A stretch of 52,649 nt of DNA from an uncultured Rhodobiaceae bacterium (GTDB lineage: Bacteria; Pseudomonadota; Alphaproteobacteria; MED-G09): the NCBI GenBank assembly GCA_964557485.1, contig CAZLAN010000001.1, positions 1 to 52,649 of the forward strand, given 5' to 3'. Below, piece by piece: positions 3,715-47,772 of the stretch. The position numbers and the translations under genes were made by a program. Under the pieces are notes generated by a model. That model was not told the DNA's origin and did no database searches. It saw only the letters and a list, made by a program, of their open reading frames with translations. Each line of letters starts with the position of its first letter. The first letter of the stretch is position 1.

Positions 3715-3749
3715 GGAAATCATAACAAAAAATTAAGGAACTATAAATA

Positions 3750-3778
3750 AAAACGGCTCTTTTGAGCCGTTTTTTTTT
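3750..3778 (+). terminator. Rho-independent terminator, exact copy of the 1091-1118 hairpin
   Basis: AAAACGGCTCTTTTGAGCCGTTTT followed by a T-run, 36 nt after the receptor stop. Confidence 0.8.
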
Positions 3779-3956
3779 AAATTAACTTTTTAATAAATTA
3801 GTTAATTAAGACAAGCCTATAGTAAGTATTATTATTTTATTCAATAACAGAATTCATCTAAATTATATTAAGAAAATAAATACATAAAATTAATAGTATA
3901 AATACAAATATTATGTTTAGATTAAACTATCAATACCAATATTGGGGGAATAACTA

Positions 3957-31028: not shown

Positions 31029-33227
31029 ATGAAATTAAGAACCTATCTTTTACTATTTGTATTAATTTTAATTGGTATTTATTTCTTTTCTTCAAAAGAA
31101 AATTTAACCAAAGATGAAATCACCCTCGTAGAAGAATCAAGAATTGAAAAAATTGAATTAGAAAAAAAAATTGCTAATATCACTCAAAAAAGAATTATTA
31201 ATGCAGATAGTGAGCCAAATGTATGGTTATCATATGGAAGAAATTATGAGGAACAAAGATTTTCTCCATTAACTCAAATAAATAAAAATAATATAAACAA
31301 TCTTGAATTAGCCTGGTCATTTGATATGAATAGCACCAGAGCGTTAGAATCCACTCCAATTGTTGATGACGGAATAATGTTCCTTACTAGTGAATGGAGT
31401 ATTATATATGCTATTGATGCAAAAACTGGAAATGAAGTTTGGTATTACGATCCTGAAGTTCCTAAAGACTGGGGAAGAAAAGCTTGCTGCGATGTAGTAA
31501 ACAGAGGAGTTGCAATTTGGAAAGGTTATGTCTATTCAGCTACACTTGATGGCAAGTTATTAAAGCTAGATGCTAGAAGTGGTGAGTTAATTTGGGAAAA
31601 AGATACTCTTATTGACCGTAATAGAGATTACACCATTACCGGTGCTCCAAGAATTGCTAATGATTTGATTTTCATAGGAAATGGTGGAGCTGAATATGGC
31701 GTAAGAGGATATGTTTCTGCTTTCGATATAAATTCTGGAGATTTAGTATGGAGATTCTATACGGTTCCTGGCGACCCATCTTTACCTTTTGAACATCCTG
31801 AAATGGAAATAGCTGCTGAGACCTGGAAAGGCGGAGAATGGTGGAAAATTGGTGGTGGTGGAACCGTTTGGAATACAATTGTATATGATCCTGAATTTGA
31901 TCAGATTTACATAGGGGTTGGAAACGGATCTCCTTGGACTAGAGTTATAAGGTCGCCTGGCGGAGGAGATAATTTATTCCTTTCTTCAATAGTTGCTCTT
32001 GATGCGAATACTGGAAAAATGAAATGGTATTACCAAACTACACCTGGTGATAATTGGGATTACACTGCTGTTCAAGATTTGATGTTAGCTGAAATGGAAG
32101 TTGATGGTGTAGTTCGTAAAGTTATTATGCAAGCGCCTAAAAATGGTTTCTTTTATGTCTTAGATAGAGAAGATGGAAAACTCTTACGGGCTCATAAATA
32201 TGCTGAAGTAAATTGGGCTACTCATGTAGATATGGATACTGGGAGACCAATTGAGAACAAGGAGAAAGATTACCTAAAAGAAAAGCAATGGATTTTACCT
32301 GGCGCTTTAGGAGGTCATAATTGGCAGGCAATGTCGTTTGATCCTAATTTAGGACTAGTATTTATCCCTACTCAAATAGCTCCAACAATTTACAAAATGA
32401 CTGAGGAATGGCAAAAAACTGGTAAAATCAAATACAAACCAAATACATGGAATACAGGTGTAGAACTAGCAAAGTACCTTGATTTAGCTCTTAATACTCC
32501 TGAGGTGCCAATTCCCACAGGCTCATTAAAAGCTTTTGATCCAATTTCAGGAGAAACAAGATGGGAAGTAAATTATCCACAGCACTGGAATGGTGGAACT
32601 CTATCAACTGAATCAGGTTTAACTTTTCAAGGGAATGGAATGGGCTTCCTAAATGCATTTGATTCTGCTTCAGGAGAAATATTATGGTCTAGAGATATTC
32701 AAACAAGCATGCTTGCACCTCCAATAACTTTTGTTATTGATGGAGAACAATATATTGCAATATTGGCTGGAACTGGTGGTGGAAATAATCATGGCGGGGA
32801 TACTCTCGGGTTTCATACTGAACATTTAGCTTCTTTAAAATATGGTAACAATGGAAGACTTCTTGCCTTTAAAATAGGGGGAAATCAGAAACTTCCGCGC
32901 TTGGATCTTATTAATAAATCCATTCCAGAACAACCACAATTGATATCAACTGAATTTCAAATAAAAAGAGGAACTGAGCTTTATGGTGAATATTGTGCGT
33001 TTTGTCATGGCACAGCTGTAAGGGCTGGTCCCGCCTTACCAGACCTAAGAATGATGAGTATTGATACTCATGAATTATTTCAAGAAATTGTATATCAAGG
33101 TATTCTCAGTGATAATGGTATGTCATCATTTTCAGATGTTCTTTCGGAAAAAGATGTTGAAAGCATTTATCACTACATTGTTAATACAGCAACAATTGAT
33201 AGAACTGTTCAATTAGAAAATAATTAA
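31029..33227 (+). CDS. Quinohaemoprotein PQQ-dependent alcohol dehydrogenase (type II ADH-like), copy 1
   Basis: Vicinal disulfide KACCDVVNRG. Propeller blocks TITGAPRIAN, GVRGYVSAF, GGGTVWN, PGDNWDYTA and APKNGFFYVLDR. C-terminal cytochrome c site CAFCHG. N-terminal signal or anchor. Confidence 0.9.
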   Translation: MKLRTYLLLFVLILIGIYFFSSKENLTKDEITLVEESRIEKIELEKKIANITQKRIINADSEPNVWLSYGRNYEEQRFSPLTQINKNNINNLELAWSFDMNSTRALESTPIVDDGIMFLTSEWSIIYAIDAKTGNEVWYYDPEVPKDWGRKACCDVVNRGVAIWKGYVYSATLDGKLLKLDARSGELIWEKDTLIDRNRDYTITGAPRIANDLIFIGNGGAEYGVRGYVSAFDINSGDLVWRFYTVPGDPSLPFEHPEMEIAAETWKGGEWWKIGGGGTVWNTIVYDPEFDQIYIGVGNGSPWTRVIRSPGGGDNLFLSSIVALDANTGKMKWYYQTTPGDNWDYTAVQDLMLAEMEVDGVVRKVIMQAPKNGFFYVLDREDGKLLRAHKYAEVNWATHVDMDTGRPIENKEKDYLKEKQWILPGALGGHNWQAMSFDPNLGLVFIPTQIAPTIYKMTEEWQKTGKIKYKPNTWNTGVELAKYLDLALNTPEVPIPTGSLKAFDPISGETRWEVNYPQHWNGGTLSTESGLTFQGNGMGFLNAFDSASGEILWSRDIQTSMLAPPITFVIDGEQYIAILAGTGGGNNHGGDTLGFHTEHLASLKYGNNGRLLAFKIGGNQKLPRLDLINKSIPEQPQLISTEFQIKRGTELYGEYCAFCHGTAVRAGPALPDLRMMSIDTHELFQEIVYQGILSDNGMSSFSDVLSEKDVESIYHYIVNTATIDRTVQLENN

Positions 33228-33244: not shown

Positions 33245-35470
33245 ATGGGACACCCAGGATTAGGTAGAAAATCTGCAATATTTATAAATGTTGTTTTGTT
33301 ATTATCTATATCAATAGCTGTTTCTTATAAATTAATTCTCTTAAATGAAGAAAAAGTTATTAAAGAAATTCCAATAGAAAGTAAGGTTAAATTAATAGAT
33401 GATAAAAAATTCGGCCAAATAAACTCTAAAAGAATTATTAACGCCAATAAGGAACCTCACAATTGGCTTTCGCATGGAAGAGATTATAATGAACAACGAT
33501 ATTCACCACTTGACCAAATAAATAAGCAAACAATAAGTAAATTAGAATTGGAATGGTCTTTAGATATGGGAACTACTCGGGGTCTAGAAGCTACGCCAAT
33601 TATAGATAATGGAATAATGTTTGTTTCTAGTACTTGGAGTGTAGTTCATGCTATTGACGCAAAAACTGGTAAAGAACTTTGGGTTTATGATCCAAATGTT
33701 CCTAGAAGCTGGGCAAGAAAGGTTTGTTGTGATGTTGTAAACAGAGGTGTAGCAGTTTGGGAAGGACAAGTTTATTTTGGAACAATCGATGGACGCCTTA
33801 TTAGTCTTGATGCGGTAACAGGTGAAAAAACATGGGAAATAAATACACTAATTGATACATCAAAAGACTATACCATTACAGGGGCACCAAGAATTGCAAA
33901 TGGAAAAGTTTTTATAGGTAATGGTGGTGCTGATATGGGTGGAGTTAGAGGTTATGTTTCAGCCTATAATGTAAAAAATGGTAATCTAGAATGGAGGTTT
34001 TTCACGGTTCCTGGAGATCCATCTTTACCTTTTGAACATCCTGAAATGGAAATGGCTGCAGAAACATGGAATGGTCAATGGTGGGTTATGGGTGGCGGTG
34101 GAACTGTTTGGAATTCTATTGTTTATGATCCAGAATTCAATCAAGTTTATTTGGGAACAGGTAATGGATCTCCATGGAATCAGCAAATTCGTTCTCCTGG
34201 AGGTGGTGATAATTTATTCTTATCATCAATCGTTGCTCTCAATGCTGATACAGGAAGAATGAATTGGTATTATCAAACTACCCCTATGGAAAGATGGGAT
34301 TACACTGCAACACAAGACATAATGTTAACTGAATTAGAGGTTGATGGCGCTGAAAGAAAAGTTTTAATGCAAGCGCCTAAAAATGGATTCTTTTATGTCC
34401 TGGATAGAAAAACGGGTGAACTTCTTAGGGCAAATAATTATGTAGAAACTAATTGGGCAACACATGTTGATTTAAAAACAGGGAGACCTGTCCTTAATAC
34501 AAATAAGGATTATTATAAAAAAGCAGTTTGGATACTTCCAGGGACATATGGCGGTCATGGCTGGCAAGCAATGTCTTATGATCCTAAGCAAAAACTAGTT
34601 TTCATTCCCACAATGGAAATAGCTGCTATCCATAAAGTTAAAAAGTCATTCAGCAAAACAGGTCTTTTTAAAATGCAGCCTCAAACCGTAAATACTGGAA
34701 CAGAATTTAATCTTTTTGATACTGTTCCTGATATGGCTGATGGTGAAAGTATACCTCCAATAACAGGAGAATTAAAGGCTTTTGACCCTATTACAGGAAA
34801 GACAAAGTGGTCAGTTAAGCATGAACAATTTTGGAATGGCGGACCTCTAACTACTGCAGGAAGTCTTGTTTTTCAGGGAAATGGTTCAGGTTTTTTTGAA
34901 GCATATAATGTAGAAAATGGCGAACGAGTTTGGTCTAAAAATGTAAGAATTGGAATAATGGCTCCACCTGTTACTTTTATGATCGATGGAGAACAATATA
35001 TTAGTATTCTAGCTGGAGATGGTGGAGCAAGTAATTTTCTTGGTGATAATTTTGGTGAATGGAAAGGAAAACTTGCGTCTATTAAATATGGGAATTTTGG
35101 AAAACTTTTAACTTTTAAATTAAATGGAAAATCTAAAATTGAGGAAATACCTGAAAAAAACTTAAATATACCCGAGCAACCTATAATTAATACAAGCTTA
35201 GAAAATATAAAAGCCGGGCAAGACATTTACGCAAATTATTGTGCTATATGCCATGGAAGTGGAGTTCATGGTAAAACAATTTCAGATTTAAGATATATGA
35301 GCTCTAATACTCACGAATATTTTAATGAAATAGTCTTAAACGGAATGCTTGAAGAAAACGGAATGAAAGGTTTTTCTGATCTTCTATCTGATAAAAATGT
35401 TTTCGAGGTTTATTCTTATATTGTAGATGTGGCCACTAAAGAAAGATTAGCTCAACAAAAATCTAATTAG
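33245..35470 (+). CDS. Quinohaemoprotein PQQ-dependent alcohol dehydrogenase, copy 2 (tandem paralog)
   Basis: Same blocks as copy 1 (KVCCDVVNRG, TITGAPRIAN, GGGTVWN, APKNGFFYVLDR, CAICHG), but PMERWDYTA in place of PGDNWDYTA. Confidence 0.9.
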   Translation: MGHPGLGRKSAIFINVVLLLSISIAVSYKLILLNEEKVIKEIPIESKVKLIDDKKFGQINSKRIINANKEPHNWLSHGRDYNEQRYSPLDQINKQTISKLELEWSLDMGTTRGLEATPIIDNGIMFVSSTWSVVHAIDAKTGKELWVYDPNVPRSWARKVCCDVVNRGVAVWEGQVYFGTIDGRLISLDAVTGEKTWEINTLIDTSKDYTITGAPRIANGKVFIGNGGADMGGVRGYVSAYNVKNGNLEWRFFTVPGDPSLPFEHPEMEMAAETWNGQWWVMGGGGTVWNSIVYDPEFNQVYLGTGNGSPWNQQIRSPGGGDNLFLSSIVALNADTGRMNWYYQTTPMERWDYTATQDIMLTELEVDGAERKVLMQAPKNGFFYVLDRKTGELLRANNYVETNWATHVDLKTGRPVLNTNKDYYKKAVWILPGTYGGHGWQAMSYDPKQKLVFIPTMEIAAIHKVKKSFSKTGLFKMQPQTVNTGTEFNLFDTVPDMADGESIPPITGELKAFDPITGKTKWSVKHEQFWNGGPLTTAGSLVFQGNGSGFFEAYNVENGERVWSKNVRIGIMAPPVTFMIDGEQYISILAGDGGASNFLGDNFGEWKGKLASIKYGNFGKLLTFKLNGKSKIEEIPEKNLNIPEQPIINTSLENIKAGQDIYANYCAICHGSGVHGKTISDLRYMSSNTHEYFNEIVLNGMLEENGMKGFSDLLSDKNVFEVYSYIVDVATKERLAQQKSN

Positions 35471-36017
35471 TTTTTTTAGGAATATTTGCTTTTGGAGCCT
35501 CAAATAATTCTAAATACCATTCATCATCAACAGAATTAAATTTCTCAGATTCTTCTGTTTCATCTGAAGTATCTTTTTCTTCTCTATTTTCTATTCCCTC
35601 GTAAGAATCCTTTTCTATCATAAAAACATCTCCACGCTTTGCTTCAATTAGGCCTTCACAAAATATCCGATCATAAGGTATGCTGACTATTTCAGGTATA
35701 TTATCGAAAACACCACCTTGTTTCTCTCTATAAAAAACTAGATAAGATTTACCAGGTATTTTTCTTATCTTATCTGGCTCTAAACAATCATGGGCAAGAT
35801 ATTTAAATTTTATTCCTTTAATTTCTTCAAATTTATTTATTCTTGGCTTTCCTAAAATTTCTTCTATCAAATGATATGAAAATATAAATAGGAAAAAACC
35901 TAAAAAAACTAATATGACCTTAAATACTAAAGAAAAGCGTGTATAAAAAACAAATAACAATAGAATTGAAAACGATAAAGCAAATAGAATTGCTAAATTA
36001 ATTGAATCTAAATTCAT
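35463..36017 (-). CDS. Hypothetical membrane protein (184 aa), third gene of the MotA/ExbB-like operon
   Basis: Two N-terminal hydrophobic helices, a globular region of about 90 aa, and an acidic tail (EEKDTSDETEESEKFNSVDDE). ATGA overlap with the upstream gene. No recognisable family. Confidence 0.6.
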   Translation of the reverse strand: MNLDSINLAILFALSFSILLLFVFYTRFSLVFKVILVFLGFFLFIFSYHLIEEILGKPRINKFEEIKGIKFKYLAHDCLEPDKIRKIPGKSYLVFYREKQGGVFDNIPEIVSIPYDRIFCEGLIEAKRGDVFMIEKDSYEGIENREEKDTSDETEESEKFNSVDDEWYLELFEAPKANIPKKTN

Positions 36018-36628
36018 TGTTTTAAAATTCCACCAATTAATGATTTTTGAATAAAACTTAAATCTTGAATACTGCCCTTCTCATCTAAGAAAAACCTAAC
36101 AGCAGTAAGTTCATGCCCAGTCTCAGTCAAAAAGTGATTGCCAAAATAAATAGTCTTTACTTGAGGATTTATCTTTTCAACTTTTACCTTGGTTTTTAAT
36201 GGAACAACGAAATTAGCTTTATAATGCAATAAATTAACAACATATTCACCTGCCATAAAACCTCTAATAGTTATTATTTCTTGGTTAGCAGGATTTTCAA
36301 TATTTACCCCATCTATTGTTAAACGATCAGCTAAGGTTCCTCTATCATCTCTATCAAGGTGCATTAAACCATCTGAGGTGTTCTGAAAAAAAACAATATT
36401 ACCTTTGGGATCTTCGACAACTAAATCTACATCATCAGGATGATAATCTTCCCATTCTACGGAAATAATAAATTCTGCTTTAGATTGGATATTTGCATCC
36501 TCTAAAGGTTTTTGAATTAGAGCAAATGAAATAAAAAACATAAAAGCAAAACCCAATAGAGCATTGAACAGAAGGTCAGTAAAAGCATCTCCACTATTAT
36601 CTTCTATAAAGATTAATTTATCTTTCAA
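36014..36628 (-). CDS. Hypothetical single-pass membrane protein (204 aa) with a MotB/ExbD-like Asp-containing TM helix and an unrecognised periplasmic domain
   Basis: The N-terminus GDAFTDLLFNALLGFAFMFFISF places an Asp at the cytoplasmic end of the only TM helix. The remainder reads as beta-rich (SVEWEDYHPDDVDLVVEDPKGNIVFFQN, LDRDDRG). Overlaps the channel gene by 11 nt. Confidence 0.6.
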   Translation of the reverse strand: MKDKLIFIEDNSGDAFTDLLFNALLGFAFMFFISFALIQKPLEDANIQSKAEFIISVEWEDYHPDDVDLVVEDPKGNIVFFQNTSDGLMHLDRDDRGTLADRLTIDGVNIENPANQEIITIRGFMAGEYVVNLLHYKANFVVPLKTKVKVEKINPQVKTIYFGNHFLTETGHELTAVRFFLDEKGSIQDLSFIQKSLIGGILKQ

Positions 36629-37253
36629 TATTTTCTTCCCTTAAAAAAGTAATTTCATTAATTAAGGTAACAACATTAGAGGAAGTAATTTGAAATTGAA
36701 GACGAATTAAAATACTAGAAACTAGTCCTGTTAAAGTAGTAAACAAAGCTACTGCCATACCAGAACTCATTGAAGATAAAGCTTCCTTCAACTCCTCGGG
36801 GCCCGTATTATTTAATTCAGATATAGGCTGAAGCATTAAAATAAAGCCAATAACAGTTCCTAAAAGACCTAATTTTAATGATACATCTGCAGCAACCCAT
36901 CCAAAACTAAGTTTTTTTGCATACTCAGATTCAAAAACCCTAATAATAACATCCTTATCTTCGTCTTTATCTAGATCTCTTAAATATCTTCCAATGGATA
37001 AATTTGAAGACGAATCATTTTCATTTCCAATTAAGGATTTATCTAAATATATAATTCTTGATAAATAGACCCAATAAATTGTAGTCACTATCCAAAGAAT
37101 AATAATTGCCTTAGAGATATGACTCTTATCACCTTGAAGAACTATCTGCATTAAACCTTGGTCATTTAATATCCAAAATCCAAATAAGATAATAACTAAA
37201 AGTAAAAGCGATCTAAGAAGGCCATTTGATTTAGGTTGCTCAATTTTTGTCAT
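36618..37253 (-). CDS. MotA/TolQ/ExbB-family proton-channel protein (211 aa)
   Basis: Family signature LKLGLLGTVIGFILM and GMAVALFTTLTGLVSSILI in the last two TM helices. There is also an N-terminal TM helix. Confidence 0.8.
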   Translation of the reverse strand: MTKIEQPKSNGLLRSLLLLVIILFGFWILNDQGLMQIVLQGDKSHISKAIIILWIVTTIYWVYLSRIIYLDKSLIGNENDSSSNLSIGRYLRDLDKDEDKDVIIRVFESEYAKKLSFGWVAADVSLKLGLLGTVIGFILMLQPISELNNTGPEELKEALSSMSSGMAVALFTTLTGLVSSILIRLQFQITSSNVVTLINEITFLREENIER

Positions 37254-37360: not shown

Positions 37361-38689
37361 ATGGAAGAAAAGACTCTTTTAGAAAACGGAACAATTATTG
37401 ACGGTACTGGTTCAAAACCAAAAAAGGAATCAATTATTTTTGGTAATGGTTGTATTTTAGCAACAGGAAAAGATGCTGATAAAATTGCCAAATCAGATAA
37501 TGTTAATAAAATAGATGCATCTGGCAAAACAGTAATGCCAGGCCTTATTGATTCTCATATACATGTTACTTTTGATGAACCTTCTTCAAATGATGAATTA
37601 TTCTTTCATCGCAGAGAATCCTTGTCGGCAATAATTGCAGCATACAATGCAAGGAAAGTCTTATTAGCAGGTGTAACAAGTTTTTGTGATCCAGATTGTC
37701 TACATGATATTGGAGTTGATTTAAGAGATGCTATCAAAAGTGGTTATGTACAAGGTCCAAGGATGTCAGTTGGCGGAAATGCCCTACTAACTTCCGTTGG
37801 AGGAACTGCAGGAAGATTAATTCCAGATGAAGGTCTAAGAGGTTATGCAAAAATTGTTCAAAGTAAAGATGAAATAATAACTGAAGTTAGGCGACAAATT
37901 AAAAATGGTGTCGATTGGATTAAAGTACATGTTACTGGCCTTATACCAAACCAAAAAGAAGCAGGAGAAATTTCGGTTTGGTCATATGAAGAATTAAAAT
38001 TAGTTTGCGATTTAGCTCATGATCTTGGAATTCCTGTAGTTGGTCATGTAAGAAATGCAAAAGGAGTTAAAGATAGTATAAAAGCAGGAATGGACATGAT
38101 TTTACATGCTACATGGATGGATAAAGAAGCTTTGGATCTTGTTTGTGAACATAAAACTCCAATAGTACCCACTTTAACATTTCAAGCAAATCTAGCAGAA
38201 TTTGGTGAATCGGTTGGAGCTTCGAAGGATTATCGTGAAATATTTAAAAAAGAAATTACTGATAATGTTTCAAATTATAAAAAACTTCATAAAGCAGGTG
38301 TTCCACTATTATGCGGAACGGAGAGCGGATTTTCAATAACCCCTTATGGTGAATGGCATCATAGAGAATTAGAAGTTTTCGTAAATGAAATTGGGATGAC
38401 TAATCTTGAGGCTATCACATGTGCAACTAAAAATGCATCAAAATCAATAAAAATGGAAGGTAAATTAGGAACTTTAGAAAAAGATATGCTTGCAGATATC
38501 CTTATTATCGATGGAGATCCATTAAAAGATATTACTATTTTAGGAGATAAATCTAAAATATCACATATATTTATCGATGGAAAAGAAGTTAACCAAGAAG
38601 TGCCTTATGGTCCAGTGACTTATGCTCAAGGGTGGAGATTATCACCTTTTTCAGATGGAATACTGACTCAAGAACTAACTAAAAAGTAA
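37361..38689 (+). CDS. Metal-dependent amidohydrolase-family protein
   Basis: GKTVMPGLIDSHIHV (HxH metal site), a later VGHV, and a C-terminal ADILIIDGDPLKDI block. Confidence 0.8.
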   Translation: MEEKTLLENGTIIDGTGSKPKKESIIFGNGCILATGKDADKIAKSDNVNKIDASGKTVMPGLIDSHIHVTFDEPSSNDELFFHRRESLSAIIAAYNARKVLLAGVTSFCDPDCLHDIGVDLRDAIKSGYVQGPRMSVGGNALLTSVGGTAGRLIPDEGLRGYAKIVQSKDEIITEVRRQIKNGVDWIKVHVTGLIPNQKEAGEISVWSYEELKLVCDLAHDLGIPVVGHVRNAKGVKDSIKAGMDMILHATWMDKEALDLVCEHKTPIVPTLTFQANLAEFGESVGASKDYREIFKKEITDNVSNYKKLHKAGVPLLCGTESGFSITPYGEWHHRELEVFVNEIGMTNLEAITCATKNASKSIKMEGKLGTLEKDMLADILIIDGDPLKDITILGDKSKISHIFIDGKEVNQEVPYGPVTYAQGWRLSPFSDGILTQELTKK

Positions 38690-38704: not shown

Positions 38705-39898
38705 ATGAAAGAATTTAATTTTACAAAATATGAAGAAGCTATAAAGATTTATAGAGATAACAACCTTATGCAAGCCTTATATGATGAAGGTGAAATTATA
38801 ATGGATCAGGTTTTAGTCTGTCTCCATGGTGAAGAGCATAAAAAAAGAAGAAAAGTAGAAAACAAAATTTTTTCTAGAGAAACCTTTCGTCTATATGAAA
38901 CTGAAATATACCCTAAGACTATAAAAGAAACGATAAAACCATTTATTGATTCTGGTAAAATGGACTTAGTTGATTTTGGCTTTAGAGTTCTTCTAAATTT
39001 AACAGCTGACTTTTCAGGAGTTGATAGACCTCTTAAATCACAAGAGGAGACAGAAACTTTAATAAGATTACTTAAAACCTTTGCTTCAGGTGCTACCCTA
39101 GCTCATTCAACTCGTGATCGTGAAGAGGTAAAATCTGAAATAAAATTAGCTTTAAAGGAATTTGAAGAAAGATTTTTAGGGCCCTCAATTGAAAGACGTA
39201 AAGAAATTATAAAAAAATCGGAAGAAGATAATCTACCAAAAGATATTTTAACAGCGCTTTTACTAAATCAAGACAAGCTTAAATTACCACATGATGTTTT
39301 AATGCGAGAAATTGCTTTTTACTTATTAGCTGGAGCTCAAACTTCAATTCATTCTTTAGTGCATACTTTCCACGAAATTATGACTTGGATTGAAAAAAAC
39401 CCTGATCAAAAAAATAGAATAAACGATCCAATTTTTATACAAAAATGTGTTCATGAAAGCACGAGATTACATCCTTCGAGTCCTGTGGCTTGGAGAAAAC
39501 CTGTCTGTCCAGTAAATCTTCCTAATAATGAACAAGCTGTCGAGGGTGATAAAGTTATTATAGATTTATATAATTGTAATCGTGATAAAGAAATTTTTGG
39601 CGATGATGCAAAAGAATTTAATCCAGAAAGAAAAGCTCCAAGCGGTCAAAATGTTTATGGATTATCTTTTGGACTAGGTATGCATTCGTGTATTGGAAGA
39701 AATTTGGCGGCAGGAGTTGTTCCTAAAAAAGATACCGATCCTGATAACCATCATTACGGAACTGTTGCATTAATAATAAGAAAATTATTTGAAAATAATG
39801 CCCTTCCTAACCCTAATGATCCTCCTAAAATGGATGAAAAGACTAAACGACCAAACTGGGGATATTATCCTATAATTCTAAATTCAGATAAGGTCTAA
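38705..39898 (+). CDS. Cytochrome P450 (397 aa)
   Basis: Cys-ligand loop FGLGMHSCIGRNL, ExxR in HESTRLHP, and I-helix AGAQTS. Confidence 0.88.
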   Translation: MKEFNFTKYEEAIKIYRDNNLMQALYDEGEIIMDQVLVCLHGEEHKKRRKVENKIFSRETFRLYETEIYPKTIKETIKPFIDSGKMDLVDFGFRVLLNLTADFSGVDRPLKSQEETETLIRLLKTFASGATLAHSTRDREEVKSEIKLALKEFEERFLGPSIERRKEIIKKSEEDNLPKDILTALLLNQDKLKLPHDVLMREIAFYLLAGAQTSIHSLVHTFHEIMTWIEKNPDQKNRINDPIFIQKCVHESTRLHPSSPVAWRKPVCPVNLPNNEQAVEGDKVIIDLYNCNRDKEIFGDDAKEFNPERKAPSGQNVYGLSFGLGMHSCIGRNLAAGVVPKKDTDPDNHHYGTVALIIRKLFENNALPNPNDPPKMDEKTKRPNWGYYPIILNSDKV

Positions 39899-39902
39899 AT
39901 TC

Positions 39903-41111
39903 TTGAAACAATACGAAACATCAAATTATGACACTATAAAAAAAGCGTTAGTCAATAGGGATCTTAAGCAAGCTTTATATGATAAAGGAAAAGTAATAAT
40001 GGATGGTGTTCTTTTGACACTTCATGGAGAAGAACACCACAAAAGAAGAAAACTTGAACACAAAGTTTTTCAAAGAGATTTCTTTAGGTATTATGAGCAT
40101 GAACTTTTTCCTAAAACACTTGATGAAACTCTCAAACCATTTATTAAAAAGAAATCAGCTGATTTAATTGATTTTGGATACAGAATAACAATGAATTTGA
40201 CCGCTGATTTTGCTGGAATTGATAGACTAGAAAAAACTCCAGCGGAAACTGAAAAATTACTATCTCTTGTCAAGACATTTAGCCAAGGAGCAACATTAGT
40301 TCATTCGAAAAGACCTCACGAAGAAGTTAATAAAGAAGTTATAGATGCTCTAGAAATTTTTGAAAAAGACTTTTTAATTCCATCAAAAATGAGAAGAGAA
40401 AAATTAATAAAGAAATTTAATAATAATGAAGTAAATGAAAATGAATTACCTAGAGATGTATTAACAGTTCTTATAAGGAATGTTGATAATATAGAATTAA
40501 ATGATGAACTTATTAAAAGGGAAATAGCGTTTTATCTTCAGGCAGGTTCGCACAGCACAGCAAACTCAATGACACATGCAATCCATGAAATCTTAAAGTG
40601 GATTGATAATGACGAAGGTAAACTTTTAAAGATTAATAGTGATCCATTATTTCTACAAAAATGTGTTCATGAAAGCATGAGATTGCATCCTGCAAGTCCA
40701 GTTGCATGGAGAAAATCAACTTGCGCTATTAATCTTGAAAAGGAGATAAACCTTAAGAAAGATGATTTGCTAATTATGGATCTACATACAGCAAATAGGA
40801 GTAAAGAAATTTTTGGTAAAGATGCCAATAGCTTTAATCCTTTCAGAAAATTAGATTCTCAGCAAAATTTATGGGGTTTAACTTTTGGAATTGGTCTTCA
40901 CTTATGCTTTGGTAGAGACTTAGACGGAGGTTTAATTCCTGAAAAAAATACAAACCCAGATACACACCAATATGGAATTGTTACATTGTTGATAAAAAAG
41001 CTTTTTGAGCATAAAGTTCAATTAGATCCTAATAATCTACCAAAGGAAGATGAAAAGACAGAACGCCCAAATTGGGGCAAATACCCAATAATTTTTGGAG
41101 AAAGAAAATGA
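39903..41111 (+). CDS. Cytochrome P450 (402 aa), tandem paralog
   Basis: FGIGLHLCFGRDL, HESMRLHP, and AGSHST. It is collinear with the preceding P450 from the first residues (MKQYETSNYD vs MKEFNFTKYE), which supports the TTG start at 39903. Confidence 0.85.
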   Translation: MKQYETSNYDTIKKALVNRDLKQALYDKGKVIMDGVLLTLHGEEHHKRRKLEHKVFQRDFFRYYEHELFPKTLDETLKPFIKKKSADLIDFGYRITMNLTADFAGIDRLEKTPAETEKLLSLVKTFSQGATLVHSKRPHEEVNKEVIDALEIFEKDFLIPSKMRREKLIKKFNNNEVNENELPRDVLTVLIRNVDNIELNDELIKREIAFYLQAGSHSTANSMTHAIHEILKWIDNDEGKLLKINSDPLFLQKCVHESMRLHPASPVAWRKSTCAINLEKEINLKKDDLLIMDLHTANRSKEIFGKDANSFNPFRKLDSQQNLWGLTFGIGLHLCFGRDLDGGLIPEKNTNPDTHQYGIVTLLIKKLFEHKVQLDPNNLPKEDEKTERPNWGKYPIIFGERK

Positions 41112-41848
41112 AGAATGCATTAGTTACTGGATCAAGTAATGGAATTGGTCTTGAAATTGCAAAAAAACTTAGCAAAAACAATTATCATGTTGGAATGATA
41201 GATATAGATGAAGATAACCTCATTAAGGAAAGCAAAGAAATAGAAAATAGTATGCCTATAGTGGGTGATGTAACTGATGAAGAATCAATAAAAAATGCTG
41301 TAAGTAAATATGGAAAAACACCGGATTTATTAGTTAACAATGCTGGAATAGTTTTATTTGGAGGGCTAGAAGAACAAAGCATACAAGATTTCAAAAAAAG
41401 TGTTGATATAAGTTTAATAGGTTCATATTTAGTTTCAAGAATACTAATAAATCTTATGATAAAGAATAAATCTGGATGTATAATAAATATGTCTTCAATA
41501 AATGGGATTCACCCTGGGGCAGGAACTGGTGGATATCCTGCAGCTAAAGCTGGAATTGTTTCTCTTACCCAACAGATGGCTATTGAGTGGGGTCCGTATG
41601 GAATTAGGGTAAATTCTATTGCTCCAGGTTTTATAGATGCTGGTATGTCAAAACCAATCTATGCAGAACCTAAAGTTAGAGAATTAAGAGGGAATGCTGT
41701 ACCATCTAAAAGATTAGGTGAGGCAGAAGATATCGCTAATGCAGTAATTTTCTTAGCCTCCGAAAATGCTTCTTATATAAATGGGCATAATCTTGTTGTT
41801 GATGGTGGCGTCATAAACAGTGTATTAGCCCAACTTCCAAGAGAATAA
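41108..41848 (+). CDS. SDR-family oxidoreductase
   Basis: TGSSNGIGLEIA, NNAG, and YPAAKAG. The start is set at the ATG at 41108 (ATGA overlap with the P450 stop) rather than the ORF-track 41072. Confidence 0.85.
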   Translation: MKNALVTGSSNGIGLEIAKKLSKNNYHVGMIDIDEDNLIKESKEIENSMPIVGDVTDEESIKNAVSKYGKTPDLLVNNAGIVLFGGLEEQSIQDFKKSVDISLIGSYLVSRILINLMIKNKSGCIINMSSINGIHPGAGTGGYPAAKAGIVSLTQQMAIEWGPYGIRVNSIAPGFIDAGMSKPIYAEPKVRELRGNAVPSKRLGEAEDIANAVIFLASENASYINGHNLVVDGGVINSVLAQLPRE

Positions 41849-42534
41849 TGAAAAAAAACTTAATAATTTCTGGTGGAATTTTTCATCCATTTGAGGATAC
41901 TTCAAAATCTCTTTCAAAAATAATGTCTGATTTAGATTATCAATCCGAAATCACCATGGATATAGAAGAAGCATTTAGGAATCTTGAAGATTATGATCTT
42001 TTAACATTAAATGCTCTTAGATGGAGAATGCTAAATCATGAAAAATATCTTCCATATATTGATGAATGGCAATTTAGTTTATCTGAAGAAGGTCAAAAAA
42101 ATTTATATAATTATATGATGAGTGGAGGATTATTAATTGCTTTTCATACATCCTCTATATGCTTTGATGATTGGAAAGATTATTCAAAAATTTTAGGAGG
42201 TAAATGGGTTTGGGACCAAACTTTTCATCCTCCATATGGTCCTGTAGAAATATCTCCTATATTAGATCACGAAATATCTAATAAATTAAAACCTTTTTAT
42301 CTTAATGATGAAATTTACCATAACCTTGAATTAGAGGCATCATCTAAACCTTTTTTAACAGGAAAGACTAAAGAAACCGATGAAGAACATATAATTGCCT
42401 GGACATATAAAATTGGAAAAGGAAAGGTAGTTTATAATTCATTGGGGCACGATTCTAAATCTCTAGAAAGTGATGAATTTTCTGAAATAATTAGAAGATC
42501 AATTCATTGGATTGAAGGAAAAAATAATGAATGA
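41848..42534 (+). CDS. ThuA-like (trehalose-utilisation, class-I glutamine-amidotransferase-like fold) domain protein
   Basis: The pattern GGLLIAFHTS ... WKDYSKILGGKW ... HEI ... DEIYH ... GKVVYNSLGHD follows the ThuA domain consensus. The start shares one base with the preceding stop (TAATG). Confidence 0.6.
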   Translation: MKKNLIISGGIFHPFEDTSKSLSKIMSDLDYQSEITMDIEEAFRNLEDYDLLTLNALRWRMLNHEKYLPYIDEWQFSLSEEGQKNLYNYMMSGGLLIAFHTSSICFDDWKDYSKILGGKWVWDQTFHPPYGPVEISPILDHEISNKLKPFYLNDEIYHNLELEASSKPFLTGKTKETDEEHIIAWTYKIGKGKVVYNSLGHDSKSLESDEFSEIIRRSIHWIEGKNNE

Positions 42535-43288
42535 GATAAAAAATAAATCAATACTAATTACTGGAGGAGCTACAGGAATAGGTTTTGCAATGGCAAAAAG
42601 GTATTCCGAAAAAGGTGCTTTAGTTACAATTTGTGGTAGGAGAAAAGAAAAAATTGAAAAAGCGTTAGAATTATTAAATGATAATGTAAAAGGCTTAATA
42701 GCTGATGTAACAGTAGATTCTGATAGAAATAAAATTATTGAAATCACAATTAATCATGGAAGAAAAATTGATATCTTAATTAATAATGCAGGAAATATGT
42801 ATCGGGGTAATATTGATGAGCTAGAAGAGGAAAAACTTATAGAAATCTTTAACTCAAATGTAATTTCAGGGATGATGCTACTAGGAAAAGCTAAAAAACA
42901 TCTAAAAAAATCTGAAGGAGTCAATATTTTCATTGGATCAGTACATAACAGAAGAGCATTTCCAGGTGCATCACCATACGCAGCAACAAAAGGTGCACTT
43001 GAGACACTAACTAAAGTATTAGCAGCTGAATTAGGAAAAGATAAAATAAGAGTTAATTGCGTTGTTCCAGGTGCTGTTTTTACTGAAATTAATCAAAGAG
43101 CAGGATTATTTGATGATAAAACAGCAAAAAAAAGGTTGGATTCAATGTCCAAGATCCATGCATTAGGAAGAATAGGAGAGCCAGAAGAGATTGCTGAAGC
43201 AGTTGAATATTTGATTTCTTCTAAATGGACCACGGGCGCAATTCTAGATGTGGATGGTGGTTTAGGATTAGGTTTAACTGAAGGTTAA
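42527..43288 (+). CDS. SDR-family oxidoreductase
   Basis: TGGATGIGFAMA, NNAG, and YAATKGA. The ATG at 42527 overlaps the ThuA-like stop by 8 nt. The ORF track used a TTG at 42512. Confidence 0.85.
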   Translation: MNEIKNKSILITGGATGIGFAMAKRYSEKGALVTICGRRKEKIEKALELLNDNVKGLIADVTVDSDRNKIIEITINHGRKIDILINNAGNMYRGNIDELEEEKLIEIFNSNVISGMMLLGKAKKHLKKSEGVNIFIGSVHNRRAFPGASPYAATKGALETLTKVLAAELGKDKIRVNCVVPGAVFTEINQRAGLFDDKTAKKRLDSMSKIHALGRIGEPEEIAEAVEYLISSKWTTGAILDVDGGLGLGLTEG

Positions 43289-44080
43289 TTAGATAGGTAA
43301 ACTTGAAACCCCTCCATCGACAGCAATTGATTGACCAGTAATATAACTGGCTCTTTCTGAAGATAAAAATGCTACTAATGCTGCTAACTCTTCCGCTTCA
43401 CCAACTCTTTTAGCAGGTATTCCGCTGGCTATAGATTCTATAATATCTTCTTTAGAACTTTTTGAAGACTCTGCTTGATTATTAATTAAATCATTAACTC
43501 TTTCTGTATGCGTAAACCCAGGACAAACATTATTTATCAAAACATTGTAAGAAGCTACTTGATTAGACAAAGTTTTAGACCAACCATGAATAGACATGCG
43601 AACACCATTAGAAAGTATAAGATTGTCAATAGGTTGTTTAGCAGAAACAGAACTTATATTAACAATTCTTCCCCATTTATTTTCTTTCATGGATGGTAGC
43701 ACTTTTCTAGTTACTCTAACCGCAGATAAAAAGGTTGATTCAAAAGCCTTTATCCAATCTTCATCAGATATATCTTCAAAAAATCCAGCCTTAGGACCTC
43801 CAGTATTATTAACCAAAATCTCTATAGCCCCATAATTATTTTGAACTGATTCAATAAGATTAGAAATTTCATTATCATTATCTAAATTTGTTGGAAAACT
43901 TATAACTTCAGCACCAGTTAAATTTATAATTTCTTTAGCAGTACCTTCAATTTTCTTTTCATCACGTGAACAAATAGCTAGTTTAACTCCTTCTTTAGCT
44001 AACTCTATAGCTGAAGCTTTTCCTAAACCCTGACTAGCTGCTGTTACAAGTGCAACTTTACCCTTTAACCCTAGATCCAT
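43289..44080 (-). CDS. SDR-family oxidoreductase
   Basis: The N-terminal glycine motif is degenerate (TAASQGLGKASA). NNTGG is present, but the usual Y-x-x-x-K appears changed, and a C-terminal SDR block remains (ASYITGQSIAVDGG). Its stop abuts the convergent SDR with no gap. Confidence 0.8.
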   Translation of the reverse strand: MDLGLKGKVALVTAASQGLGKASAIELAKEGVKLAICSRDEKKIEGTAKEIINLTGAEVISFPTNLDNDNEISNLIESVQNNYGAIEILVNNTGGPKAGFFEDISDEDWIKAFESTFLSAVRVTRKVLPSMKENKWGRIVNISSVSAKQPIDNLILSNGVRMSIHGWSKTLSNQVASYNVLINNVCPGFTHTERVNDLINNQAESSKSSKEDIIESIASGIPAKRVGEAEELAALVAFLSSERASYITGQSIAVDGGVSSLPI

Positions 44081-44176: not shown

Positions 44177-46528
44177 ATGTCTGATAAAGGTCTTGGTCAA
44201 TCTGTAAAAAGAAAAGAGGATTTCCGCTTCATAACAGGGAAAGGTAATTATACCGACGATATAGTTCTTCCCCATCAGTTATATGCCTATTTTTTAAGAT
44301 CCCCAGTGGCTCACGCTAAATTAAAATCTATTGATATTGAAGAAGCGAAAGAAAGTAATGGAGTTCAAGCAGTTTATACTGGAAAAGATACTGATGCTTT
44401 TTTACCTTGCGGATGGGAAACACCTACAAGGGAAGGTACACCCCCAATGGCTGAACCTCCTTGGCCATTATTTGCTCAAGAAAAGATAAGATTTGTAGGA
44501 GAAATAATTGCTGTCGTAATAGCTGAAACAATAAACCAAGCTAAAGATGCTTGTGAATTAATTAAGTTTGATTATGAAGAATTGGATGCAGTTGTTTCAC
44601 CAGAAAAAGCATTAAAAAATGGCGCGGAATTGATTTGGAAAGATATACCTAATAATCAGTGTTTTGACTGGGAATTAGGAGAAAAAGAAAATACAGATAA
44701 CGCTTTTAAAAATGCTAAATACTCGGCATCAATTGAAATTCTTAATAATAGATTGGTACCAAATGCTATGGAGCCAAGATCTTATATTGGATATTATGAT
44801 AAAGGAAAAGATGAATATATCCTTTATACAACAACACAACTTCCCCATATAATTAGAATGCTTGTTTGTGGTGTTCTTGGGTTAGAAGAACAGAAAGTAA
44901 GAGTTATTTCACCAGATGTTGGAGGTGGTTTTGGATCAAAGGCTTTTCATTATGCTGAGGAGTCAATTGTTACATGGGCATCTAAAAAATTAGAAAAACC
45001 TATTAAATGGACCTCAGAAAGAAGTGAGGCCTTTATTAGTGATAGACATGGAAGAGATCATATAACTAAAGCTGAAGTAGCAATAGATAAGGATGGTAAT
45101 TTTCTTGCTATGAGAGTTAATACGATTGCAGCTCTAGGCGGTTATTTATCTGGATCTGGACCTGCAATACCAACTTTCTTCTATGGACCGTTAATACCCG
45201 GACCATATAAAACACCTAATTTTTATTGTAATGTTAGAGGAGTTTTTACTAATACAGTTCCTGTTGATGCTTATAGAGGCGCTGGAAGGCCTGAAGCAAC
45301 ATATGTTACTGAAAGATTAGTGGAGGCAGCAGCCGAAATTACAGGGATAGACTCTATAGAATTACGAAGAAAAAACTTTATACAAGCTGATCAATTTCCT
45401 TACAGCTCACCAGGTGCATTAACTTATGATAGTGGGGATTATGAAGCGACACTCAATTCAGCACTTAAAAGCATAGATTACCATAACTTTAACAAAAGAA
45501 AAAATGAATCAATAGAGAACGGAAAACTAAGAGGCTTAGGAATATCTTGCTATATAGAAGCATGTGGAGTTGCACCTTCTAAACTAACTTTAGAAGCTGG
45601 TGGAAGGGGTGGTTATTATGAGTCATCAACAGTAAGAATTAACCCTACAGGTTCAGTTACAGTTTTTACTGGATCACATTCGCATGGGCAAGGTCATGAA
45701 ACAGTTTTCGCACAATTGGTTCACGAAAAACTTGGAGTACCGTTTGAATCAGTAGATGTTGTCCATGGAGATACTGGGAGAGTACCTTTTGGTGTTGGAA
45801 CGGTAGGTTCTCGTTCCTTAGCTGTAGGTGGTCCAGCTCTAATGAGATCCTTAGATAAAATAATAGAAAAAGGAAAGAAGATTGCCGCACATTTATTAGA
45901 CTCAACTGATAAAGAAATTATATTTGCAAATGGTGAATTTTCGGTATCAAATACCAATAAATTTATAACTTTTACTGATGTTGTTGGTGCTGCATATGTT
46001 CCAGGAAACTATCCAATAGAAACTTTAGAACCAGGTCTTGAAGAAACTTCCTTTTATGATCCTCCAAACCTAACTTATCCAGCAGGAGCTCATATTTGTG
46101 AAATTGAAATTGATCCAGATACAGGAAATATTGAAATAGTAGATTATTGTGTTTCAGATGATTTTGGAATTGTTATGAATCCAATGATAGTAGAAGGACA
46201 AGTTCATGGAGGGGTTGCCCAAGGCATTGGTCAGGCACTTTATGAAAATTGTATTTATGAAGAAAATACTGCCCAATTAATTAATGGTTCTTTTATGGAC
46301 TATGTTATGCCAAGGGCAGACAATGTTCCACATATGGTTGTTAAAACAGAAGTTACGCCATGCGCCCATGGGTTAGGTGTAAAAGGATGCGGAGAAGCTG
46401 GGGCAATAGCTGCTCCGCCAGCTGTAGTACACGCAATTCTCGATGCCCTTAAAGAAAAAGGAATTAAAAATTTTGATATGCCAGCAACACCTAATAAAGT
46501 CTGGAATGCAATAAATAATAAAGTTTAA
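44177..46528 (+). CDS. Molybdopterin-binding large subunit of the xanthine dehydrogenase / CoxL family (form-II CoxL-like)
   Basis: GQSVKRKEDFRFITGKG N-terminus, GGGFGSK, the active-site loop AYRGAGRPEA, and a C-terminal GVKGCGEAG. No small (2Fe-2S) or medium (FAD) subunit gene is adjacent. Confidence 0.88.
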   Translation: MSDKGLGQSVKRKEDFRFITGKGNYTDDIVLPHQLYAYFLRSPVAHAKLKSIDIEEAKESNGVQAVYTGKDTDAFLPCGWETPTREGTPPMAEPPWPLFAQEKIRFVGEIIAVVIAETINQAKDACELIKFDYEELDAVVSPEKALKNGAELIWKDIPNNQCFDWELGEKENTDNAFKNAKYSASIEILNNRLVPNAMEPRSYIGYYDKGKDEYILYTTTQLPHIIRMLVCGVLGLEEQKVRVISPDVGGGFGSKAFHYAEESIVTWASKKLEKPIKWTSERSEAFISDRHGRDHITKAEVAIDKDGNFLAMRVNTIAALGGYLSGSGPAIPTFFYGPLIPGPYKTPNFYCNVRGVFTNTVPVDAYRGAGRPEATYVTERLVEAAAEITGIDSIELRRKNFIQADQFPYSSPGALTYDSGDYEATLNSALKSIDYHNFNKRKNESIENGKLRGLGISCYIEACGVAPSKLTLEAGGRGGYYESSTVRINPTGSVTVFTGSHSHGQGHETVFAQLVHEKLGVPFESVDVVHGDTGRVPFGVGTVGSRSLAVGGPALMRSLDKIIEKGKKIAAHLLDSTDKEIIFANGEFSVSNTNKFITFTDVVGAAYVPGNYPIETLEPGLEETSFYDPPNLTYPAGAHICEIEIDPDTGNIEIVDYCVSDDFGIVMNPMIVEGQVHGGVAQGIGQALYENCIYEENTAQLINGSFMDYVMPRADNVPHMVVKTEVTPCAHGLGVKGCGEAGAIAAPPAVVHAILDALKEKGIKNFDMPATPNKVWNAINNKV

Positions 46529-47758: not shown

Positions 47759-47772
47759 AATAAACCTCTAGA

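Follow-up and report, generated by a model that had tools for sequence, protein, structure and literature searches.

The closest described relatives of the locus considered here are the ExbB-ExbD-TonB and TolQ-TolR-TolA systems, the MotA-MotB and PomA-PomB motors, and the ZorA-ZorB pair of Zorya. In the Ton and Tol systems, a common logic is apparent, in which (i) a channel subunit is combined with (ii) an Asp-bearing partner and (iii) a membrane-anchored periplasmic protein. A different type of machinery, the ATP-driven ABC-transporter and β-propeller proteins encoded by PedA1A2BC/lut-type clusters, is found adjoining PQQ alcohol dehydrogenases; these clusters function in lanthanide uptake, as described in work on P. 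putida and Methylorubrum. Herein, we describe three genes (g1, g2, and g3) that follow the Ton/Tol gene logic, with gene order as in tolQ-tolR-tolA, yet are best read as an undescribed branch of the MotA/ExbB family with two novel periplasmic partners, g2 and g3. No literature on this trio was found. The genes lie in a 52,649-nucleotide stretch of DNA from an uncultured Rhodobiaceae bacterium (hereafter, the window), the relevant features of which are as follows:

36618-37253, minus strand: g1, channel subunit (211 aa, ATG start)
36014-36628, minus strand: g2, Asp-bearing partner (204 aa, TTG start)
35463-36017, minus strand: g3, two-helix hairpin protein (predicted; 184 aa, ATG start)
33245-35470, plus strand: PQQ quinohemoprotein dehydrogenase adjoining g3 (741 aa; Pfam PQQ and Cytochrome_CBB3, NCBIfam TIGR03075)
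31029-33227, plus strand: tandem PQQ quinohemoprotein dehydrogenase paralog (732 aa; Pfam PQQ and Cytochrome_CBB3)
1264-3714 and 3957-6350: two TonB-dependent receptors
44177-46528: Mo-hydroxylase large subunit, a large ORF of the window
21326-24163: class I tRNA synthetase, a large ORF of the window

The three minus-strand frames were confirmed in the window sequence, as were the 11-nt overlap of g1 with g2 (36618-36628) and the ATGA overlap of g2 with g3 (36014-36017), all of which had been proposed from the DNA letters. Given that g2 has 3,743 homologs (best E=1e-126) and that exact and near copies of g3 are present on other contigs, these are real genes and not chance ORFs. Use of the TTG start furnishes g2 with an N-terminus matching that of its homologs.

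Assignment of g1 to the MotA/ExbB-type channels, as made in the sequence-only reading, is supported by its match to Pfam MotA_ExbB (PF01618; 47 bits vs. a cut-off of 22.9, E=2.6e-12), the same Pfam family as that of ExbB. The protein contains four hydrophobic segments and ends ~25 residues past the last helix, with a short cytoplasmic loop that ranges from 0 to 86 residues across relatives. Residues D42, S47, G129, G132, T133, G136, G165, T173, and G176 do not vary among 36 aligned relatives. Each of these, the phage copies described below included, retains the GT and TT motifs in its two channel helices, and in alignments the conserved Gly/Thr motifs match up with the equivalent helices in solved MotA, PomA, and ExbB. 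Resemblance to every solved motor is nonetheless weak, with the g1 profile roughly equidistant from solved MotA, PomA, ExbB, and TolQ (E from 3e-5 to 1e-2) and a MotA as the best solved-sequence match (E=3e-5). By sequence, g1 is thus a minimal four-helix channel subunit of the MotA/TolQ/ExbB family. It shares the four-helix topology of the MotA/PomA A subunits but lacks their cytoplasmic torque-generating domain, and it differs from ExbB in its four helices and in the near-absence of a cytoplasmic domain.

The partner protein g2 is single-pass, with one hydrophobic segment, and displays the trait that typifies ExbD, TolR, and MotB, namely a single membrane helix in which an Asp close to the cytoplasmic end is conserved. 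Of 78 diverse relatives (31-81% identity), 77 retain this residue (Asp18), with Val replacing it in one subfamily, and it falls on Asp25 of E. coli ExbD in an hhalign comparison spanning only 19 helix columns (E=0.024); the earlier proposal of an ExbD/TolR/MotB-like placement is upheld by both observations. Outside of the membrane, the likeness ends. The AlphaFold2 model of g2 (pLDDT 91) consists of a helix (residues 13-38), a linker of ~14 residues, and an all-β domain (residues 53-191), as opposed to the α/β fold of ExbD. This periplasmic β-sandwich is rich in invariant acidic residues, with W59, D66, D68, D94, G97, E117, and G127 being invariant in g2. It had been described beforehand as β-rich and neither ExbD-like nor OmpA-like, in agreement with the model and with the lack of any Pfam match. 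Indeed, g2 has no family match in Pfam, NCBIfam, PADLOC, PHROGs, or the PDB, and Foldseek against the PDB returned nothing at E<=1e-3. PF02472 matches one of the 78 relatives (E=0.005) and PF04151 (PPC) matches two (best E=1e-5), with neither matching the window protein, while the g2 profile weakly detects the jelly-roll C-terminal domains of subtilisins in the PDB (E=0.18-0.25). We could thus reject g2 as (i) an ExbD/TolR protein, based on the all-β model, the missing Pfam match, and hhalign coverage confined to the membrane helix (with no alignment at all to TolR); (ii) a MotB/PomB protein, as neither MotB_plug nor OmpA was matched in Pfam or NCBIfam and the model is a β-sandwich in place of a plug helix and an OmpA-like peptidoglycan-binding domain; and (iii) a long periplasmic partner of the GldM type, as its 204 aa contain a single sandwich domain. 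The latter point, along with the absence of GldL/GldM matches for the trio in Pfam or NCBIfam, also led us to reject a GldLM/PorLM motor. Flagellar genes are likewise absent.

For g3, the two membrane helices and acidic tail read from the window are reflected in two hydrophobic segments and in a 48-residue tail with 16 D+E vs. 6 K+R. The protein also carries a C-terminal motif with a FEFxxVPPPxLPPK-type family consensus (LELFEAPKANIPKK in the window copy), and family alignments reveal K33, G56, P81, P108, P180, and K182 to be invariant. From the positive-inside rule, the loop between TM1 and TM2 would be cytoplasmic and the C-terminal part periplasmic. Together with an AlphaFold2 model containing a small β domain (pLDDT 78), these features predict a two-helix hairpin membrane protein that combines a small periplasmic domain with an acidic linker and a conserved motif at its C-terminus. 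No match to g3 was detected in Pfam, NCBIfam, PADLOC, or PHROGs, nor by Foldseek or in PDB sequences. Alignment by hhalign was helix-only for both E. coli TonB (TonB residues 3-42, E=0.046) and E. coli TolA (22 helix columns, E=0.12), consistent with the earlier view that g3 is neither protein. A TonB identity was rejected in light of the two hydrophobic segments, the missing TonB C-terminal domain, and the lack of a PDB sequence or fold match; TolA was rejected given the 22 helix columns and the small β domain of the model.

The trio is kept across hundreds of marine bacterial species, and the three-gene order is seen in essentially all contigs of sufficient length. Genes g1 and g2 are ordered with overlaps or few-nt gaps in 80/80 genome loci, with g3 joining them in ~77/80; in a distant subfamily sampled through 80 metagenome loci, g1 is present in 76, g2 in 79, and g3 in 69. 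As the trio co-occurs as a unit, and as profile and fold searches yielded no confident match of g2 or g3 to an ordinary ExbD/TolR or TonB/TolA, the sequence-only proposal of a channel operon with two non-canonical partners stands.

That same proposal was wrong, however, in calling the operon an orphan. The 80 species surveyed here (GC 32-69%) belong to the Alpha- and Gammaproteobacteria, with the addition of one MAG bearing a Myxococcota label; in 77 of the 80, a PQQ quinohemoprotein dehydrogenase homolog is encoded no more than a few kb from the trio, and in 68 it is immediately convergent. In the window, the dehydrogenase gene converges on g3 such that their stop-codon ends overlap by 8 nt. 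Its product (Pfam PQQ E=1e-79; TIGR03075 616 bits vs. a cut-off of 480) is membrane-tethered, with a PQQ propeller followed by a C-terminal cytochrome c domain, and the paralog directly upstream (Pfam PQQ E=2e-81) forms with it a tandem pair that recurs in the closest alphaproteobacterial loci. Genes flanking the four-gene block of trio and dehydrogenase vary by lineage. In 12 Pelagibacteraceae loci, the trio is instead divergent from genes for a TonB-dependent receptor and a PedA1A2BC-like PQQ-system ABC transporter, including PedC permease (TIGR03861), PQQ_ABC_ATP (TIGR03864), a PQQ-associated β-propeller (TIGR03866), and PQQ_ABC_bind (TIGR03863; 409 bits, slightly below the cut-off of 413.6); these proteins are direct neighbours of the trio there but have no homology to g1, g2, or g3. 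In a third subfamily, cytochrome c and PQQ dehydrogenase genes lie upstream on the same contig, with the dehydrogenase ending ~2.4 kb before g1. Since the dehydrogenase gene is convergent with the trio and not co-transcribed with it, the PQQ link is one of conserved adjacency only.

Phage-borne copies of the trio, which had not been foreseen, constitute a large share of the diversity of the family. They are carried by 28 marine phage contigs with terminase, HNH, and ERCC4-nuclease genes, by other phage-like contigs (one with PhoH), and by cultured phages of Rhizobium, which span two or more genome types. No PQQ genes were found near phage-borne trios, and the core function of the trio therefore cannot be PQQ-specific.

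Several explanations could be offered for these data. The trio might be a divergent but true Ton system, the first option put forward in the sequence-only reading, with g1 as ExbB, g2 as ExbD, and g3 as a TonB analogue whose C-terminal peptide would engage TonB-dependent receptors such as importers of PQQ or lanthanides. This would suit the receptor-adjoining Pelagibacteraceae loci, as well as the flexible charged linker and conserved Pro-rich end of g3. The second g3 helix, which by the positive-inside rule would run from cytoplasm to periplasm after a positive loop as does that of TonB, is also the helix set on TonB by hhalign, and the phage copies could be explained as a takeover of outer-membrane transport. 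However, g3 lacks a TonB_C domain and a long Pro-rich rod, as well as any conserved His in its helix, the ExbD fold is absent from g2, and the periplasmic part of g3 (~130 residues) may fall short of the outer membrane. Moreover, a conserved receptor adjoins the trio in 0/80 genome loci, and the window contains two receptors, not the three originally counted, both ~30 kb distant. We thus consider a true Ton system unlikely. Tol-like envelope maintenance through outer-membrane/peptidoglycan tethering, independent of the dehydrogenase, would account for the three-gene logic, but we judge it very improbable: tolB, pal, ybgF, and ybgC are absent near the trio, g2 lacks the TolR fold, g3 lacks the TolA helix and domain III, sequence and fold similarity to the Tol proteins is limited to the channel helices, and the short linker of g2 would not allow for peptidoglycan contact.

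The phage copies raise a further explanation, i.e., that the trio is fundamentally a phage module for phage-host conflict or the phage life cycle (superinfection exclusion, envelope remodelling, or Zorya-like defence), with chromosomal copies domesticated and their adjacency to PQQ dehydrogenases historical as opposed to functional. Beyond the breadth of phage carriage, this is favoured by weak ZorA matches of g1 in PADLOC and NCBIfam, which arise via the common channel helices. The NCBIfam ZorA models score only 22-25 bits on g1, though, against cut-offs of 100-500; g1 lacks the long ZorA tail, the trio lacks the ZorB peptidoglycan-binding domain, no ZorC, ZorD, ZorE, or effector genes accompany it, and PADLOC contains no family for g2 or g3, leading us to reject ZorAB as its identity. 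Phages themselves carry the trio, a further departure from Zorya. No integrase or prophage genes were found among the conserved neighbours of chromosomal loci, and adjacency to PQQ genes arose or persisted in three separate subfamilies across GC contents of 32-69%, which is hard to explain without selection. A phage module is thus, in our estimation, a doubtful origin for the chromosomal trios, and is less probable than a divergent Ton system.

We instead favour, with a probability of roughly 0.55, a reading in which the trio forms one ion-driven inner-membrane complex of the MotA/ExbB/TolQ type that in this organism serves the PQQ-dehydrogenase system. By analogy, we infer a 5:2-like g1:g2 stoichiometry, in which a pentameric g1 channel ring would surround a g2 dimer acting as a central and possibly rotating axle, with Asp18 as an ion carrier facing Thr133 and Thr173 of g1; protons are the most likely driving ion. 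The acidic, rigid g2 β-sandwich would be held immediately above the membrane on its periplasmic side. Anchored by its helical hairpin, g3 would display its small periplasmic domain, with the flexible acidic linker presenting the conserved Pro-rich C-terminal peptide. Proton-motive force would thus be converted into movement of, or force exerted on, a partner in the periplasm or outer membrane, much as in Ton and Tol but through unrelated output proteins. In g2 and g3, invariant residues are concentrated in the periplasmic portions, while the cytoplasmic loop of g1 is variable; with little conserved on the cytoplasmic side, the work of the complex is probably done in the periplasm.

Ultimately, the trio is best read as a new family of periplasmic transducers that, like Ton and Tol, would draw on proton-motive force. 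In this bacterium and in cellular relatives, the process partnered with the complex would be the PQQ-dependent quinohemoprotein alcohol dehydrogenase system, for which its most likely task is in supply or loading of the periplasmic dehydrogenase, be it with PQQ, with metal, or with substrate brought in across the outer membrane.

The trio in the window consists of three overlapping minus-strand genes (g1, g2 and g3), the last of which converges with a plus-strand gene for a quinohemoprotein (PQQ) dehydrogenase that lies beside a tandem paralog:

36618-37253, minus strand: g1, MotA/ExbB-family channel protein (PF01618), 211 aa
36014-36628, minus strand: g2, Asp-bearing single-pass partner, 204 aa, TTG start
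35463-36017, minus strand: g3, two-helix hairpin protein, 184 aa
33245-35470, plus strand: PQQ dehydrogenase, PQQ β-propeller and C-terminal cytochrome c domain (TIGR03075, 616 bits)
31029-33227, plus strand: tandem PQQ dehydrogenase paralog, PQQ propeller and C-terminal cytochrome c domain

The trio ORFs found match the coordinates of the sequence-only reading exactly, and the overlaps it described are borne out (11 nt between g1 and g2, ATGA between g2 and g3). The window, of low GC (31.8%), appears to derive from a marine alphaproteobacterium of the PS1/OCS116 type. The three ORFs are real genes, as the homologs recovered for g2 and g3 show. For g2, a 5.8-billion-protein collection held 3,743 homologs, the closest 96% identical and of equal length, and a search of cluster representatives gave 1,475 clusters at 50% identity. 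Single-sequence search returned just 7 relatives of g3, with 109 further relatives, all named "hypothetical", recovered via a profile of positional orthologs; g3 is the faster-evolving of the two. A promoter and terminator scan was uninformative: shuffled sequences held more promoter-like sites, and no terminator was found.

Conservation of the trio as a unit across related genomes holds in 80 genome loci as well as in metagenome loci of a distant subfamily. With one genome taken per GTDB species, at least 496 species had a g2 relative, the best 80 of which were examined. All 80 of these loci contain a g1 homolog, directly upstream of g2 in every case but one, and a g3-type ORF of 183-191 residues lies directly downstream of g2 in approximately 77/80, with trio junctions spanning -10 to +20 nt. 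The exception, a gammaproteobacterial MAG (L012, 3686-5968), has a 760-residue penicillin-amidase-family gene between g1 and g2 and is the sole locus with broken coupling. Carriers among the 80 include PS1/OCS116 alphaproteobacteria, SAR86 and several Pseudomonadales families, along with one MAG labelled Myxococcota and one Fonsibacter MAG, and locus GC ranges from 32 to 69%. A second scan yielded 80 metagenome loci of the distant subfamily (~45% identity to the window g2) with gene order unchanged; g1 was recovered from 76 of these, g2 from 79 and g3 from 69. A fused g1-g2 protein (P0168) was an apparent frameshift artefact and was left out of the analysis.

The channel subunit g1 scores 47 bits against Pfam MotA_ExbB (cut-off 22.9) and has four hydrophobic segments. 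Across a 36-member alignment that includes phage copies, invariant positions are found in the third helix (G129, G132, T133, G136), the fourth helix (G165, T173, G176) and the first periplasmic loop (the D42...S47 pair), while the loop assigned to the cytoplasm ranges from 0 to 86 residues across the family. The family profile is about equidistant from the solved motors (MotA, 3e-5; PomA, ExbB and TolQ, 2e-3 to 1e-2), and NCBIfam matches to MotP, ZorA and TolQ each fall far under their cut-offs. On this evidence, g1 represents a separate, minimal branch of the MotA/ExbB superfamily.

Its partner g2 has one membrane helix, in which Asp18 is retained in 77 of 78 relatives at 31-81% identity. An AlphaFold2 model (pLDDT 91) places this helix at residues 13-38, followed by a linker of ~14 residues and an all-β sandwich (53-191); the invariant positions W59, D66, D68, D94, G97, E117 and G127 may form a metal site. 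No Pfam, NCBIfam or PADLOC family covers g2, and Foldseek searches of the PDB with the model returned nothing at E<=1e-3, the sole hints being weak similarities of the β domain to PPC and subtilisin C-terminal jelly-roll domains. Against E. coli ExbD, hhalign aligned 19 helix columns only, with Asp18 on ExbD Asp25 (E=0.024), and nothing aligned with TolR. Pfam, NCBIfam, hhalign and the predicted fold thus concur with the earlier impression that g2 is not an ordinary ExbD/TolR protein. With its membrane-Asp helix and unmatched β domain, g2 probably acts as the Asp-bearing partner of such motors, though outside the ExbD/TolR and MotB families. In one high-GC g2 subfamily (P0128, at L169 5987-6643), Val replaces the membrane Asp of all others (FTVMLF versus FTDLLF), yet the gene remains part of a g1-g2-g3 trio, with genes for a PQQ dehydrogenase and a cytochrome c nearby; on this branch, either the ion would be carried on another residue or conduction would have been lost.

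In g3, the loop between the two helices is positively charged across the family (mean 2.45 K+R versus 0.08 D+E), which by the positive-inside rule would place the remainder of the protein in the periplasm. This part comprises a small β domain with EPDK and PRA motifs, an acidic linker (mean net charge -4) and a conserved end of consensus FEFxxVPPPxLPPK, in which P180 and K182 are invariant. The AlphaFold2 model is of moderate quality (pLDDT 78). Neither fold (Foldseek, E<=1e-3) nor sequence profile gave a PDB match, and hhalign comparison to E. coli TonB and TolA aligned helix regions only, without significance. In line with the sequence-only reading, the same four lines of evidence as for g2 (Pfam, NCBIfam, hhalign comparison with the E. 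coli proteins, predicted fold) agree that g3 is not an ordinary TonB/TolA.

Overlooked in the sequence-only reading was the conserved neighbour of the trio, i.e., the PQQ dehydrogenase at 33245-35470. ORF clustering identified a single further conserved gene in the 80 genome loci, encoding a ~740-residue protein on the opposite strand and convergent on g3. A dehydrogenase homolog lies no more than a few kb from the trio in 77/80 species (again the best 80 of at least 496) and abuts g3 in 68/80, with gaps of -4 to +338 nt; in the window, the stop codons of the two genes overlap by 8 nt. Genes flanking the four-gene block vary from lineage to lineage, and neither a conserved TonB-dependent receptor nor any conserved neighbour besides the dehydrogenase was found in the 80 loci. 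Both window dehydrogenases are membrane-tethered, with a CxxCH cytochrome c domain, and both read WDYT at the site that distinguishes Ca-type from lanthanide-type enzymes, which suggests the Ca type. The dehydrogenase N-terminal anchor was considered as a TonB/TolA-like partner helix and rejected, as this N-terminus is not conserved; that of SAR86 resembles a lipoprotein signal and not a membrane anchor.

Other neighbours were observed in particular lineages. In SAR86 (L013, 5028-5384, and relatives), g1 is immediately preceded on its strand by a gene for a GFA-family protein (glutathione-dependent formaldehyde-activating enzyme-like), itself preceded by a short-chain dehydrogenase gene; this fits an alcohol/aldehyde oxidation context. 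Two further subfamilies are likewise associated with PQQ systems: the Pelagibacteraceae copies described below, and a high-GC subfamily whose contig carries, upstream of the trio, genes for a cytochrome c and for a 596-residue PQQ dehydrogenase, the latter ending ~2.4 kb before g1. The window itself carries an amidohydrolase gene (37361-38689), then a tandem pair of cytochrome P450 genes and, behind these, three short-chain dehydrogenase genes and a 228-residue ORF (38705-44080), which together with the PQQ dehydrogenases look like an oxidative catabolic island. Further features of the window are as follows:

44177-46528: Mo-hydroxylase large subunit, CO dehydrogenase/glyceraldehyde dehydrogenase type
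46946-50338: haem biosynthesis genes (coproporphyrinogen oxidase, hemE, long hemC-containing ORF)
1264-6350: two adjacent TonB-dependent receptors, left end of the window, ~30 kb from the trio

The trio was originally suggested to be a dedicated energiser of outer-membrane receptors, with three TonB-dependent receptors counted in the window; only the two at the left end were found. This idea, still a live sub-hypothesis, gains from Pelagibacteraceae loci but is weakened by the lack of a TonB-like domain in g3 and by the absence of receptor linkage in the 80 genome loci. In 12 Pelagibacteraceae contigs, the trio is divergent from genes for a TonB-dependent receptor, a PedC-type permease, a PQQ-system ABC ATPase, a PQQ-associated β-propeller and a PQQ-system binding protein. 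Among these contigs (GC 28%), L120 (626-7345) and likewise L097, L113, L129, L131, L133 and L137 have a TonB-dependent receptor and all of a PedA1A2BC-like "PQQ alcohol dehydrogenase system" transporter beside the trio. SAR11 genomes are generally described as devoid of TonB-dependent receptors, which may make the Pelagibacteraceae cluster an unusual one in itself. Assignment to Zorya or to a different catalogued defence system was rejected, with weak ZorA channel matches only and none for g2 or g3.

Phages also carry the trio, so its activity must be useful to them too, arguing against a purely PQQ-specific chemistry. Phage-type genes occur on 28 distant-subfamily contigs, with terminase large subunit, HNH endonuclease, ERCC4 nuclease and sigma-factor matches confirmed by PHROGs. 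One such contig (L095, 1118-10212) and ~27 similar metagenome contigs represent a marine phage lineage (GC ~43%) of constant gene order: sigma-like factor, two ~266-aa proteins, trio, GDP-mannose 4,6-dehydratase, alanine dehydrogenase/ornithine cyclodeaminase-family protein, HNH endonuclease, ERCC4 nuclease and terminase large subunit. Three other representatives lie on contigs made up of small ORFs that share one strand and for the most part have no Pfam match; one of these contigs has PhoH. Cultured Rhizobium phages (~68 kb; ~150-170 kb) encode g2 homologs annotated as hypothetical, and in the two inspected, g2 is flanked by a MotA-like protein of 141-148 residues and a g3-like protein:

L164, 4515-6022: Rhizobium phage RHph_N3_13 trio, very small MotA-like protein, then g2 and g3 homologs
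L165, 3534-5022: Rhizobium phage RHph_Y68 trio, very small MotA-like protein, then g2 and g3 homologs

Both trios are annotated as hypothetical throughout and sit amid replication and nucleotide-metabolism genes. No PHROGs family matched the window g1, g2 or g3, and the phage copies gave a single marginal match, of a Rhizobium phage g2 to a family of unknown function (E=3e-4); a fold search of a viral library yielded nothing beyond uncharacterised phage proteins and generic sandwiches. At 141-175 residues, the phage g1 versions are small natural channels that may suit structural work.

Taken together, the trio is best supported as a Ton/Tol-like transducer of proton-motive force. Here, g1 would form the ring and g2 the axle, which bears the ion site (Asp18), while g3 would serve as a peripheral hairpin-anchored adaptor whose flexible acidic arm is tipped by the conserved peptide; the conserved working surfaces would all be on the periplasmic side. 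In cellular carriers, synteny suggests that the trio serves the PQQ quinohemoprotein dehydrogenase system, most plausibly by supplying or loading cofactor, metal or substrate. In its fullest form, to which we assign a probability of only about 15%, this reading describes a new class of 5:2-type ion-driven motor, with a metal-binding g2 β-sandwich axle and a g3 adaptor, that would couple proton-motive force to PQQ and Ca/lanthanide loading or supply of periplasmic dehydrogenases, and that abundant marine phages would carry as an auxiliary gene set to sustain the periplasmic metabolism of the host, or its envelope transport, during infection. Such a motor would be a machine for periplasmic maturation or supply that runs on chemiosmotic power.

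Neither g2 nor g3 has a family in Pfam, NCBIfam, PADLOC or PHROGs, and no description of the trio was found in the literature searched, which included a survey of non-flagellar MotAB relatives from 2025 and recent studies on the import of PQQ and on lanthanide metabolism in marine settings. The MotA/ExbB core is familiar, unlike the partner proteins and biological context. To our knowledge, the uses of MotA/ExbB-type motors are few (flagella, Ton, Tol, gliding and type IX secretion, Myxococcus gliding, Zorya), to which the trio adds a compact motor with two partners of unknown fold family. It is common: SAR86, PS1/OCS116 and some Pelagibacteraceae, which rank among the most abundant bacteria of the ocean, carry it, as do their phages. 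The near-obligate adjacency of the trio to a PQQ dehydrogenase suggests that periplasmic alcohol/aldehyde oxidation, or the supply of its cofactor, involves an energy-dependent step that has gone unrecognised.
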